64,000 nucleotides of DNA from assembly GCF_041248615.1 (NCBI RefSeq), contig NZ_CP158427.1; one strand, written 5' to 3'. Each line of letters opens with the position of its first letter. Positions within the stretch are counted from its first letter, which is position 1. This DNA is from Escherichia coli (GTDB taxonomy: Bacteria; Pseudomonadota; Gammaproteobacteria; Enterobacterales; Enterobacteriaceae). Position numbers: made by a program. Below, piece by piece: positions 1 through 3,000 of this stretch.

Positions 1-3000
1 TCCTGGGTGACTGCGTGCGTGTTATGGCCACGTTTCCGGGCAATGCTGTCGATTTCATCCTCACCGACCCGCCGTATCTCGTCGGTTTCCGTGACCGTTC
101 CGGGCGCACCATCGCCGGCGATAAAACCGATGAATGGCTGCAACCAGCCTGTAATGAAATGTACCGCGTACTCAAAAAAGACGCGTTAATGGTGAGCTTC
201 TATGGCTGGAACCGCGTCGATCGCTTTATGGCCGCCTGGAAAAATGCGGGATTCAGCGTTGTTGGTCACCTGGTCTTCACCAAAAACTACACATCGAAGG
301 CCGCATATGTGGGCTATCGCCACGAATGTGCCTACATCCTGGCAAAAGGCCGTCCACGTCTGCCACAAAACCCGCTGCCGGACGTGCTGGGCTGGAAATA
401 TTCGGGCAATCGCCATCACCCGACGGAAAAGCCCGTTACCAGCCTGCAACCGCTGATTGAGAGCTTCACACACCCGAACGCAATTGTGCTGGACCCGTTT
501 GCAGGCAGCGGCTCAACCTGCGTCGCCGCCCTCCAGTCCGGACGCCGGTATATCGGTATCGAGCTGCTTGAGCAGTATCACCGTGCCGGGCAGCAACGCC
601 TTGCCGCCGTGCAACGGGCCATGCAGCAGGGGGCCGCGAATGATGACTGGTTTATGCCGGAGGCTGCGTAAATGAACTATGCAGGACACGAAAAACTGCG
701 CGCCGAAGTGGCGGAGGTGGCCAATGCCATGTGCGACCTGCGTACAACCATGAATGAGATGGAGCAGCGGTACAGCTTTAATGCCGACACCCTGCCGGAA
801 CGTCTGGTGCGTCAGACGCTGTTTCGCGCAAACCGCCTCCTGATGGAGGCATATACCGAAATTCTGGAACTGGAAGCGTGCTTTAAAGATTGAGAAGGAG
901 ACGAGAATGTACGGAACATGCGAAACGCTATGCCGGGAGCTGGCAGTAAAGTATCCGGGAGACATGCCGCTGATGCTGGTTATCTGGTCCCCGGAAGAGA
1001 TTCAGGCACTGGCTGACGGTATGGAAATTTCTCTGACCGGTCATGAAATCAGGACCGTCCTGGCACGCCTGGAGGACATCCCGGAAGACCAGCGGATTGA
1101 GTCCGGTATTTCTTCCGCTGCGGTGATGGAGATTATCCGCAACGAGAGCGAAAACCGCCTGGTGACCGTCCCTGCTGAACTGCTGGCGTCCCTGATTCAG
1201 ACCGCTGAACAGGCATTGTGGAAACGTGAATGGGCCGCCCGGGATCATGGCCTCGCCGTCCCGGAATGCGTCACCCGCCGTCAGGAGGTGGTTAATCAGG
1301 CCCGCACCCTGCTGAAAAACAACACACACGAAAACGACTGATGTTATCGCCGCCTGCCCTGTGGGCGGCGATACAGGGAGAACGCTTAATCATGAACGAA
1401 AACAGCACGCTGAACGCACTGATTTGTCGTCACGCCCGCAACCTGCTGCTGGCGCAGGGCTGGCCGGAAGAGACGGATGTTGACCAGCGTAACCCGAAGT
1501 ATCCGGGCTGGATCAGCATTTATGTTCTGCTGGATGCGCCCCGGCTGGCGACGTTACTTATCAACCGTCACGGCGGCGTACTGCCGCCGCTCCTGGCCTC
1601 CGCCATTCAGAAACTGACCGGAACCGGGGCGGAACTGGTACTGTCCGGCAGTCAGTGGCAGTCGCTGCCGGTACTTCCGGCAGACGGAACGCAGGTGTCT
1701 TTCCCGTATGCCGGAGAATGGCTGACCGAAGACGAAATCAGGGCTGTACTTGCGGCGGTGCGCGATGCGGTACGCAGTGTCAGTTGCCGGGTGGCAGAAG
1801 ATGCGCGGCGTATCCGGGCGGCGCTGACCACCACCGGTCAGACGTTGCTGACTCGCCAGACGCGCCGCTTTCGTCTGGTTGTGAAGGAAAGCGATCACCC
1901 CTGCTGGCTCGATGAAGATGACGAAAACCTGCCCGTGGTGCTCGATGCCATCGTGAACCGGGGAGCACGTTTTTCGTCGGTGGAAATGTACCTGGTCAGC
2001 GATTGTATTGAGCATATCCTGTCCAGTGGGCTGGCCTGCGATGTGCTGCGTATACCGGATGAACCGCCCCGCCGCTGGTTTGACCGTGGTGTTCTGCGGG
2101 AGGTGGTCCGGGAAGCCCGGGCCGAAATCCGCAGCATGGCGGATGCCCTGGCAAAAATCCGGAAATGATGACGTTGGCGGGGTAAATCCCCGCCTTTTTC
2201 CTGCCGGTCCCCGGACAGAGCACAAAGGAAGTCGCCGCCGGCTCCGCTTTACCCGGCCATGCAGGGCATGGCCTTGTGGTTTTTCAGTTATGTGGCCTCA
2301 GCGTCGTGTGCGGGCTGTGCCGTGCCTCCATCTTAGCCGGGCTGGCAGGGATGCAAGGGTACGCTTCGCCGCTGCGGTCACCCGGTCCCTCCTTCCCGTC
2401 TGCCGTGATTTTCCGGTCGTTCACCCGCTCAGATTTCGCGGTCTCACCCTCCAACTCCCGCCAGCCGTGTGCGTCAGGCTGCGGCTTCCCTTGCGCCCTG
2501 TGCATCCCCGCCTTATCGCCCGGCTTTTATGGAGGCACGGCACCGCCCGGTGTCGCGGAATATGTGAACAACGGAGGAAAACATCATGCAATATGCGAAA
2601 CCTGTCACTCTGAACGTTGAAGAGTGCGACCGTCTCTCCTTTCTACCGTATCTGTTTGGCAACGATTTTCTGTATGCCGAGGCGTATGTGTACGCGCTGG
2701 CGCAAAAAATGATGCCGGAATATCAGGGAGGCTTCTGGCACTTCATCCGCCTGCCGGACGGTGGCGGTTACATGATGCCGGATGGCGACCGTTTCCACAT
2801 GGTGAACGGTGCAAACTGGTTTGACCGTACCGTGAGTGCTGATGCCGCAGGCATCATTCTGACTTCCCTTGTGATTAACCGCCAGTTGTGGCTGTACCAC
2901 GACAGCGGGGATGCAGGACTGACCCAGCTTTACCGGATGCGCGATGCGCAGTTGTGGCGTCACATCGAATTTCACCCCGAATGCAACGCGATTTACGCGG

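Follow-up and report, generated by a model that had tools for sequence, protein, structure and literature searches.

The spacer upstream of klcA in the window analysed here (the whole 64,000-nt stretch of Escherichia coli contig NZ_CP158427.1) very probably carries a class 2 single-stranded DNA (ssDNA) promoter, also called ssp2, preceded by terminators. This reading follows from homology, strand polarity, structure and conservation, together with the lack of a coding frame and of a duplex promoter. The main feature of the spacer is a 239-nt hairpin and not the short palindrome, which is a side feature and not the core of the element. A reading of the sequence alone had proposed a single-strand initiation or promoter element, of a family other than the Frpo-like repeats, that would serve early antirestriction expression, and this proposal is supported both by the sequence analysis and by the literature. 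Such an element would explain how klcA-type antirestriction genes come to be expressed minutes after the plasmid enters, at a time when no duplex promoter can be present. The coordinates of the features are given in Table 1.

Table 1. Features in and around the spacer upstream of klcA (positions in the window)
Feature	Position	Strand	Basis
yubG/yffB-like hypothetical protein gene, last of the preceding operon	1341..2168	+	ORF list
Intrinsic terminator of the upstream operon, GGCGGGG-TAAAT-CCCCGCC + TTTTT	2176..2199	+	Terminator scan
Probable class 2 / ssp2 module: small hairpin, large hairpin and start of the 5'UTR	2225..2568	-	Similarity boundaries
Small two-tier hairpin (putative terminator) including the palindrome 2255-2273, with ACCC/GGT flanks and T-rich tail	2251..2284	+	Terminator scan, RNA fold
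Main hairpin of the transferred strand, very probably the ssDNA promoter, 239 nt	2311..2549	-	Inverted repeat, folds
Inferred -10 hexamer TAAGAT, non-template arm	2330..2335	-	Pairing diagrams
Inferred -35 hexamer TTGCAT, non-template arm	2351..2356	-	Pairing diagrams
Four G3+ tracts, template arm, -35 side	2488..2521	-	Regex scan, both strands
Predicted klcA 5'UTR, start near A2537 (±2)	2537..2585	+	7 nt downstream of the -10
klcA/ardB-type antirestriction gene	2586..3011	+	PF03230 Antirestrict, E 1.5e-26
Frpo-type repeats (three)	3848-4489, 7170-7810, 12566-13206		

The spacer, its coding content and its terminators

According to the ORF list, the spacer (2169–2585) is a non-coding, GC-rich stretch of 417 nt, which bears out the earlier estimate of a gap of about 420 bp without credible genes. 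Its GC content is 0.66–0.675 between 2201 and 2500, versus approximately 0.55–0.60 in the flanks, and because of this composition nearly all of its frames are open. Only overlapping, stop-poor ORFs of 56–201 codons are found, on both strands, and the four that overlap the spacer (2008–2613 and 2276–2620 on the plus strand, 2284–2505 and 2421–2591 on the minus strand) gave no match in Pfam or NCBIfam. A conserved small protein was the outcome that the sequence-only reading had named as telling against its proposal, and it could draw on these ORFs and on the hypothetical protein annotated at the spacer position in a few database records. Against it, no stop-free frame common to nine homologues was found, the open frames and their lengths differ among homologues, and the homologous hairpins measure 245, 246 or 247 nt, with 1-nt indels that shift the frame. 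Moreover, in the RefSeq records of R100, F, pESBL and four further plasmids, the spacer is free of annotated genes. We therefore give a protein-coding spacer practically no chance. A scan of positions 1–20000 with the Rfam covariance models (E <= 1) returned no match within 2169–2585.

The homologues of klcA are annotated as 'antirestriction protein' in R100, F and pESBL, and the upstream gene is annotated as hypothetical or 'YubG family' in R100, F and p08A21005; its product (1341–2168) matched no Pfam or NCBIfam family.

Between the upstream gene and the main hairpin, two stretches, 2176–2199 and 2255–2284, have the form of a Rho-independent terminator, that is, a GC-rich stem-loop followed by a run of T. 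The scan gave three matches, two of which overlap, versus 0.8 ± 1.0 expected. In the first, the stem-loop at 2176–2194 is followed by five T residues and folds as RNA with −16.1 kcal/mol (z −2.88). This terminator lies outside the module shared with the copy upstream of ardA and is missing from plasmid p08A21005, where the ssp2 module adjoins the yubG stop codon. The second contains the palindrome GGCCATGC-AGG-GCATGGCC, located exactly at 2255–2273 as previously noted, and the T-rich tail that follows makes it terminator-like on the plus strand, although the tail is interrupted (TTGTGGTTTTT). Among the 16 variants of the element, which fall into three structural types (A, B and C), the divergent type C copies have the inner stem replaced, in the same place, by GGCCCGG-YTT-CCGGGCC followed by TTTT. 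From its sequence, the small hairpin at 2251–2284 is thus a putative terminator upstream of the main hairpin. The sequence-only reading had made no mention of the terminator at 2176–2194, of the T-rich tail or of the long inverted repeat 2311–2342/2518–2549.

The main hairpin and its predicted promoter

This inverted repeat, of 32 nt and 88% complementarity, extends to an imperfect hairpin of 239 nt with a main stem of approximately 53 pairs in the pairing diagrams. Its 5' arm (2496–2549) is the template and its 3' arm (2311–2360) the non-template strand, while the apex (2361–2495) is branched and G-rich. Folding of the minus strand, which had been suggested as a check, gave −106.9 kcal/mol (z = −5.45), well beyond chance, as none of 100 shuffled sequences folded as well. 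Under the criterion of the published hairpin screen (300-nt window, dG < −75 kcal/mol), four sites passed in the first 16 kb of the window, which include the 15.3 kb leading up to the nic site, namely this hairpin (−84.0 kcal/mol, 2251–2550) and the three Frpo repeats.

The polarity of the element could be read from the origin of transfer. At 15342–15358, 12.8 kb from the klcA element, the minus strand carries the exact nic sequence of F, and it is therefore both the transferred strand and the template of klcA. The traJ leader and FinP are found at 16.2 kb, and the gene order around the element matches that of F and pESBL.

On the non-template arm, the pairing diagrams suggest the promoter TTGCAT-N15-TAAGAT. 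These hexamers, assigned by our reading of the predicted pairing, match the consensus weakly (3/6 and 4/6), and their spacing is 15 nt, or 20 nt in type B, for a usual range of 16–19. They are nevertheless kept throughout: TTGCAT/A is present in all 16 variants (TTGCAA in most of type B), and so is TA(A/C)GAT (TACGAT in other variants). The middle three bases of the -10 hexamer are unpaired and face AAA in the template. The template bases opposite the -10 vary between types, being ATAAAA in type A, ATCTTT in type B and ATAACA in type C, and despite this variation two to three mismatches are found in the -10 box of all three types.

No sigma-70-like promoter was found in duplex form when positions 2000–2700 were scanned. 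In the duplex, the region reads GTGCAT-N19-TTTTAT, with TTTTAT at 2525–2530 on the plus strand; this candidate and another, TTGCGC-N17-TATCGC, were rejected because they match poorly and are not conserved in the other types. A promoter firing towards the loop, for which the 5' arm would serve as non-template strand, was also discarded, being a poor match that is not kept in the other types.

From the position of the -10 box, the klcA transcript is predicted to start at approximately 2537, and a Shine-Dalgarno sequence, GGAGG, is present at 2573–2577, upstream of the klcA ATG. In pESBL, a transcription start of the class 2 promoter in early transconjugants, with activity in ssDNA and silence in the duplex, was reported by 5'RACE and RNA-seq, and the start mapped by 5'RACE reportedly agrees with the in silico prediction of the authors (PMC12672017).

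The sequence-only reading had also considered a structured regulatory leader, that is, a hairpin acting in the RNA, as the 5' leader or attenuator of a klcA transcript initiated upstream of it. The plus strand does fold better than its shuffles (−96.2 kcal/mol, z −4.26), as would suit such a leader. Over the 239 nt, however, the transferred strand reaches −74.3 kcal/mol versus −63.0 for its complement, and it is more stable than this mRNA-sense strand in 16/16 variants, by a mean of 8.3 kcal/mol. Furthermore, a sigma-70-like upstream promoter is missing from the scanned region, two terminator-like hairpins separate the main hairpin from the upstream gene, and the 5'RACE starts of pESBL reportedly fit a promoter rebuilt by the stem (PMC12672017). 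Because the predicted start is near the 3' base of the hairpin, the hairpin would be absent from the mRNA. An RNA leader is, in our judgement, very unlikely.

The ssDNA promoter would operate as follows. During conjugation, the minus strand, which is the klcA template, would be led into the recipient by its 5' end, starting at the nic site (approximately 15350). Once positions 2549 to 2311 were inside the cell, this strand would fold into the 239-nt hairpin, the stem of which would rebuild a sigma-70 promoter, with the 3' arm as the non-template strand (-35 TTGCAT, -10 TAAGAT) and the 5' arm as the template, the mismatches serving to pre-open the -10 box. RNA polymerase would then start near 2537 and, leaving the hairpin at its base, transcribe klcA and the following genes before the complementary strand is made. 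Synthesis of that strand would abolish the hairpin, and as the resulting duplex, GTGCAT-N19-TTTTAT, would be unusable, expression would be turned off. By analogy with F, the hairpin would also hold up the synthesis of the complementary strand, which arrives from the left, until the helicase UvrD had opened the hairpin. What is said here of early induction, of the roadblock and of a start mapped by 5'RACE comes from the literature on homologues and not from this plasmid.

Conservation, distribution and the G-rich apex

The spacer is 100% identical to that of R100. The boundaries of the module (2225–2568) are the limits of its similarity to the second copy, found upstream of ardA in pESBL and pB-9427-1. 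Over 343–346 nt, the module is 97.4% identical in F, and in pESBL 96.0% identical upstream of klcA and 94.5% upstream of ardA; the differences from the F and pESBL copies are point substitutions and 1-nt indels only, and near the base of the stem a G:C pair of F corresponds to a G·A mismatch in the window. The comparison with elements upstream of klcA and ardA that had been recommended at the outset thus yielded near-identical copies. In divergent copies, klcA is 73% and the upstream gene approximately 67% identical, while the 21-nt stem bases are identical at 20–21/21 and 21/21 positions. The search pattern partly demanded the identity of these stem bases, but not that of the apex, which is 90–92.5% identical, far above the flanking genes.

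When the 16 variants were aligned with MAFFT and analysed with RNAalifold, no pair was changed on both sides. Since the mid-stem that is replaced in type B is not aligned correctly by MAFFT, folds of each sequence were used instead, and in these an A:T to T:A change in the -35 helix of type B is compensated on the other arm, and compensatory G:C to A:T changes are also seen in this helix. Such changes, all drawn from the per-sequence folds, are few and have little statistical power; support from covariation is limited because the divergence among the homologues is low. The hairpin itself is conserved in related plasmids, and so the other objection foreseen by the sequence-only reading, a lack of conserved structure, does not apply.

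The module is present in at least 5000 plasmids and in 3702 of the 5426 complete E. coli genomes, and 8646 of the 8749 places matched are on plasmids, the number of places per record being inflated because the two arms of the hairpin match each other on the opposite strand. This extreme spread could recall a selfish inverted repeat, inserted as a MITE-like element or left behind by a mobile element and irrelevant to the expression of klcA; so could the IncI-type plasmids in which the 340-nt module precedes both klcA and ardA, two genes that are unrelated. Yet all seven copies in an annotated context, five upstream of klcA/yfgB and two upstream of ardA, have the same orientation to the downstream gene and are fused to its 5'UTR. 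Almost all places are confined to plasmids. A transposon end would not be expected to show the asymmetry between the strands, nor to conserve the hexamers and the bubble, and we regard such an origin as exceedingly improbable.

The apex of the probable ssDNA promoter (2361–2495) has 42% G and seven GGG runs on the transferred strand. The G tracts at 2488–2521 are the only potential G-quadruplex motif on either strand of the 15.3-kb leading region, and the motif is likewise unique in the leading region of F. It is kept in 16/16 variants despite turnover between the tracts, and is canonical (loops <= 7) in type B. Judging from the sequence, the apex and the tracts might constitute a separate functional module and not just the inert tip of a hairpin, able to form a G-quadruplex or to bind a factor, but we consider this unlikely. 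Were it so, the G-rich module might explain why the stall and the need for UvrD are specific to ssp2 among single-strand promoters with hairpins as stable or more so. In this window, ssp2 is less stable than the class 1 hairpins (−84 versus −95 to −102 kcal/mol per 300 nt), whereas in F ssp2 is marginally the most stable (−89.4 versus −82 to −86 kcal/mol). The argument from stability thus fails in F, and it points only faintly to a special determinant of the roadblock.

The strong conservation of the apex and the unusual G-tract pattern, neither of which a plain promoter needs, also bear on the possibility that the element is mainly a DNA-replication signal, either an ssi priming site or a programmed pause of complementary-strand synthesis, with klcA transcription being secondary. 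Frpo-type transcripts can prime DNA synthesis, and in a preprint dealing with F only, ssp2 was reported as a cis-acting roadblock of complementary-strand synthesis that is resolved by UvrD (10.64898/2026.01.09.698686). A predominantly replicative role is possible, but we doubt it: the conserved non-template hexamers and the -10 bubble are features of a promoter, and the two roles are compatible and do not exclude each other. In F, replacing ssp2 by ssp3, which has similar strength and no roadblock, partly restored the efficiency of transfer in two recipient strains (10.64898/2026.01.09.698686), and because the restoration was only partial, both promoter and roadblock seem to count.

Comparison with known single-strand promoters

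The kind of element described here is already known, as it was published in December 2025 as class 2 and in January 2026 as the ssp2 roadblock. Class 2 ssDNA promoters were described in the IncI1 plasmid pESBL, upstream of klcA and of ardA (Wen et al., Nucleic Acids Res 2025, PMC12672017), and ssp2 in plasmid F, upstream of yfgB (Fraikin, Yamaichi and Lesterlin, bioRxiv 2026, 10.64898/2026.01.09.698686). The pESBL and F copies share with that of the window the family, the hairpin, the position between a yubG/yffB-like and a klcA/ardB-type gene, and the orientation to oriT. Among the features by which class 2 is recognized, the klcA element has the homology, a site in the leading region directly before a klcA/ardB-type gene where the transferred strand is the template, and a large stem-loop. 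What is added here is the placement of an IncFII, R100-type copy in this family; the description of three structural types in which the non-template hexamers and the mismatches of the -10 box persist although the facing sequences differ; and a conserved, strand-specific G-tract pattern as a possible basis of the roadblock.

The class 1 ssDNA promoters, Frpo and ssi1-3 (Masai and Arai 1997; Bates et al. 1999; Couturier et al. 2023, PMC9849209), work by the same principle, in which the transferred strand folds into a hairpin and so restores a promoter for leading-region genes that functions only in ssDNA. Like the klcA element, Frpo precedes a leading-region operon and is formed as a long hairpin by the transferred strand, but its sequence is unrelated. 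In agreement with the earlier observation that the spacer has no evident similarity to the three Frpo-like repeats, a BLAST search of the spacer against the window gave only a 17-nt match to them (GTGCGTCAGGCYGYGGC, E = 3.2), which was treated as chance and not as homology. The architecture differs as well: in two of the three window copies, the class 1 stem is nearly continuous, with approximately 123 pairs in 316 nt, and in the first copy it has approximately 71 pairs, as opposed to the approximately 53 pairs and branched, G-rich apex of class 2.

Class 3, or ssp3, located upstream of an M.EcoGIX-type methylase gene, is another non-Frpo hairpin promoter of the leading region, described as unrelated in sequence to class 2 (PMC12672017) and reported to be without roadblock activity (10.64898/2026.01.09.698686). 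In F, we found a hairpin of −86 kcal/mol directly upstream of the methylase gene; an equivalent of ssp3 on the present plasmid would fall upstream of position 1 of the window. A more distant parallel is offered by the ssoA-type single-strand origins of rolling-circle plasmids, where a folded single strand is also recognized by the RNA polymerase of the host. These origins yield a short primer for the lagging strand instead of an mRNA, and they are unrelated to the klcA element in sequence and host range.

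Organization of the spacer upstream of klcA

The yubG/yffB-like ORF stops at 2168, the upstream gene being closed by a tandem stop TGATGA (2166–2171), and klcA, whose product matches PF03230 (Antirestrict, E 1.5e-26), starts at 2586. The intervening 417 nt have a GC content of 66–67.5%, against ~55–60% in the flanks. This confirmed the GC-rich noncoding spacer described in the sequence-only reading, and the palindrome that it reported is present at its position. The main feature of the spacer, however, is absent from that reading: on folding, the long inverted repeat grows into an imperfect hairpin of 239 nt (2311–2549).

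Features of the klcA spacer and of the Frpo-type repeats
Feature	Position	Remarks
Canonical terminator	2176–2194 plus T5	Leftmost feature of the spacer
Palindrome	2255–2273	TTGTGGTTTTT directly after
Long inverted repeat	2311–2342/2518–2549	
Apex (−), adjoining the G-quadruplex-type motif	2361–2495	42% G, 8% T
Four-tract G-quadruplex-type motif (−)	2488–2521	Inside the ssp2 hairpin
Shine-Dalgarno GGAGG	2573–2577	
First Frpo-type (class 1) repeat	3848–4489	~640 nt; stem only ~71 pairs (4208–4395)
Second Frpo-type (class 1) repeat	7170–7810	~640 nt; stem ~123 pairs (7467–7782)
Third Frpo-type (class 1) repeat	12566–13206	~640 nt; stem ~123 pairs (12863–13178)

Because of the GC content, almost all six frames of the spacer are open. 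None of these ORFs matched a protein family; open frames and their lengths differ from homologue to homologue, and no frame survives across them, as 1-nt indels occur and the hairpin may be 245, 246, or 247 nt long. The conserved small protein that had been named as evidence against a regulatory element was therefore not found.

The palindrome belongs to a conserved module and lies in a small hairpin with two helices, ACCC/GGGT outside and GGCC...GGCC inside, around a loop that differs between copies. Only on the plus strand is this hairpin followed by a T-rich tail, so that it resembles an intrinsic terminator for transcripts arriving from the upstream operon. The module of p08A21005 adjoins the yubG stop, and the small hairpin is the sole terminator there. 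The chances seem even that it shields the promoter hairpin against read-through transcription.

Folding of the transferred strand and the putative promoter

The exact F nic sequence (GTGGGGTGT/GGTGCTTT, also given as GTGGGGTGTGGTGCTTT) is on the minus strand at 15342–15358, where it marks oriT, and therefore the minus strand is the transferred strand. This strand passes into the recipient from ~15350 toward position 1 and is the template for all plus-strand leading genes, klcA among them. Rfam matches to the traJ leader and FinP at 16.2 kb (traJ 5'UTR and FinP 16156–16265, 117.8 and 91 bits) and to the sok antitoxin RNA (11973–12149, +, 88.9 bits) are as expected, being typical of the IncF leading and transfer region. 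A match to AS-pc01 (antisense to pHK01_035; 4610–4711, −), at 73.1 bits just below the gathering score of 79, sits between the first Frpo repeat and the ORF 4706–4936.

Folding of the minus strand of the spacer as ssDNA, proposed earlier as a check, gave −106.9 kcal/mol (z −5.45), beyond every shuffle; the plus strand gave −96.2 kcal/mol (z −4.26), a value also reached by 0 shuffles. When the published screen for such elements (300-nt window, transferred strand, dG < −75 kcal/mol) was repeated on the first 16 kb, only four sites passed, namely 2251–2550 (−84.0 kcal/mol) and the three Frpo-type repeats (−94.9, −99.8, and −102.4 kcal/mol). The Frpo-type stems are much longer than that of the klcA element, and the first copy, judged by its stem, may be altered or less strong as a promoter. 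The sequence-only reading saw no similarity to these repeats, which was borne out, as BLAST within the window found no significant sequence similarity between them and the klcA element; the latter would therefore work like Frpo, yet outside that family.

In the pairing diagrams of the transferred strand, a near-perfect 21-bp helix at the base is followed upward by a 3×3 internal loop, an 8-bp helix, an asymmetric loop, a ~16-bp helix, and a branched G-rich apex. The 3' arm reads, 5' to 3', ...CCTTGCAT-CCCTGCCAGCCCGGC-TAAGAT-GGAGGCAC..., on which we infer TTGCAT to be the −35 hexamer and TAAGAT the −10 hexamer, with a spacer of 15 nt on the non-template arm and 19 nt on the template arm. The AAG in the middle of TAAGAT is unpaired and faces a template AAA. 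If the 5' arm serves as template, the predicted start is near A2537, from where the transcript would leave via the hairpin base into klcA with a leader of 49 nt. The sense strand of the duplex has GTGCAT-N19-TTTTAT, and on neither strand did the promoter scan find a sigma-70-like site, which fits a promoter active on single-stranded DNA alone.

Conservation among hairpin variants

Similarity searches and one pattern scan over the genomes of 100,044 species, the pattern demanding 11 nt of each stem base, yielded 16 distinct hairpin sequences with energies of −69 to −80 kcal/mol. Type A includes the window, R100, F, and pESBL; type B, pB-9427-1, AR_0019, and K. pneumoniae ATCC 13883; and type C, Enterobacter, K. 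grimontii, and Entomohabitans. A lack of conserved structure in related plasmids, the other finding that was to count against the element, was not observed, since the hairpin and the hexamers (TTGCAT/TTGCAA and TAAGAT/TACGAT, on the non-template arm) are present in 16 of 16 variants. In all of them, the transferred strand is also more stable than its complement (mean difference 8.3 kcal/mol).

The template bases facing the −10 hexamer vary by type (ATAAAA, ATCTTT, ATAACA), and despite this every type has two to three mismatches there. In the asymmetric loop, the template arm has four additional bases in types A and C, and the non-template arm five in type B. Both arms changed in the −35 helix (A:T to T:A and G:C to A:T), and an apex pair (columns 110 and 129 of alignment A4) is A:T in nine sequences and G:C in four. 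No double changes were found by RNAalifold on the MAFFT alignment of the variants; given the low divergence, the conservation lends support of a qualitative kind and does not amount to a statistical test of covariation. Between type C and the window, klcA is 73% identical and the upstream gene ~67%, while the apex, which unlike the stem bases was not part of the scan pattern, is 90–92.5% identical. In the small hairpin of type C, the inner stem is replaced by GGCCCGG/CCGGGCC, with TTTT at once after it.

Relation to known single-stranded promoters

The spacer is 100% identical to that of R100 and was found by similarity search in plasmid records of Escherichia, Klebsiella, Salmonella, Shigella, and other hosts, at least 5000 in all; the element is present in 3702 of the 5426 complete E. 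coli genomes, nearly always plasmid-borne. It also occurs, at 89–99% identity, in five contigs filed as non-enterobacterial (L008, L009, L010, L012, and L013, labeled Streptomyces morookaense or Oscillospiraceae, Oscillibacter, and Collinsella MAGs), most likely through contamination or wrong binning of plasmid contigs and not because these taxa are hosts. Despite the identical spacer, the window is without the IS10/Tn10 copy (annotated ISVsa5) that R100 carries after ssb in its leading region; the window therefore belongs to a related IncF plasmid, not R100 itself.

This element is known from published work. In F, the copy upstream of yfgB (ArdB/KlcA homologue) was named ssp2; complementary-strand synthesis is reported to stall at its stem end until UvrD resolves the hairpin, which prolongs expression from the single-strand promoters (Fraikin et al., bioRxiv 2026, 10.64898/2026.01.09.698686). 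In the window, GGG runs on the transferred strand are densest at the element (at most nine in 135 nt; mean in the leading region, 1.6). Its G-quadruplex-type motif, kept in 16 of 16 variants, is the sole one on either strand of the 15.3-kb leading region, and the F leading region, too, has no other. The motif may bear on the stall reported for ssp2; in F, ssp2 is also marginally the most stable hairpin, so stability alone could account for the stall.

Transconjugants that receive the IncI1 plasmid pESBL switch on its klcA and ardA operons early (Wen et al., NAR 2025, PMC12672017). The hairpins preceding both genes, which have no Frpo homology and whose starts were mapped by 5'RACE, were named class 2 ssDNA promoters and said to be conserved in F (PMC12672017). 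The comparison with such elements of other plasmids, also suggested beforehand, showed window 2225–2570 to share 97.4% identity with F and, in pESBL, 96.0% with the copy at klcA and 94.5% with the one at ardA; this near-identity, with no Frpo similarity, supports the earlier idea of a single-strand promoter of a different family. Similarity to the ardA copy sets the module limits at ~2225–2568, and the module therefore takes in the small hairpin and the beginning of the 5'UTR, but leaves out the first terminator. IncI-type plasmids have a second complete module ahead of ardA, fused to another 5'UTR end (L003:13958–14300 and L005:26949–27291, loci of two such plasmids), and the promoter cassette was therefore duplicated or exchanged between antirestriction genes; the window has the klcA copy only. 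Around it, pESBL, F, and the window share the gene order methylase, yubE, DUF1380, yubG/yffB, spacer, and klcA/yfgB.
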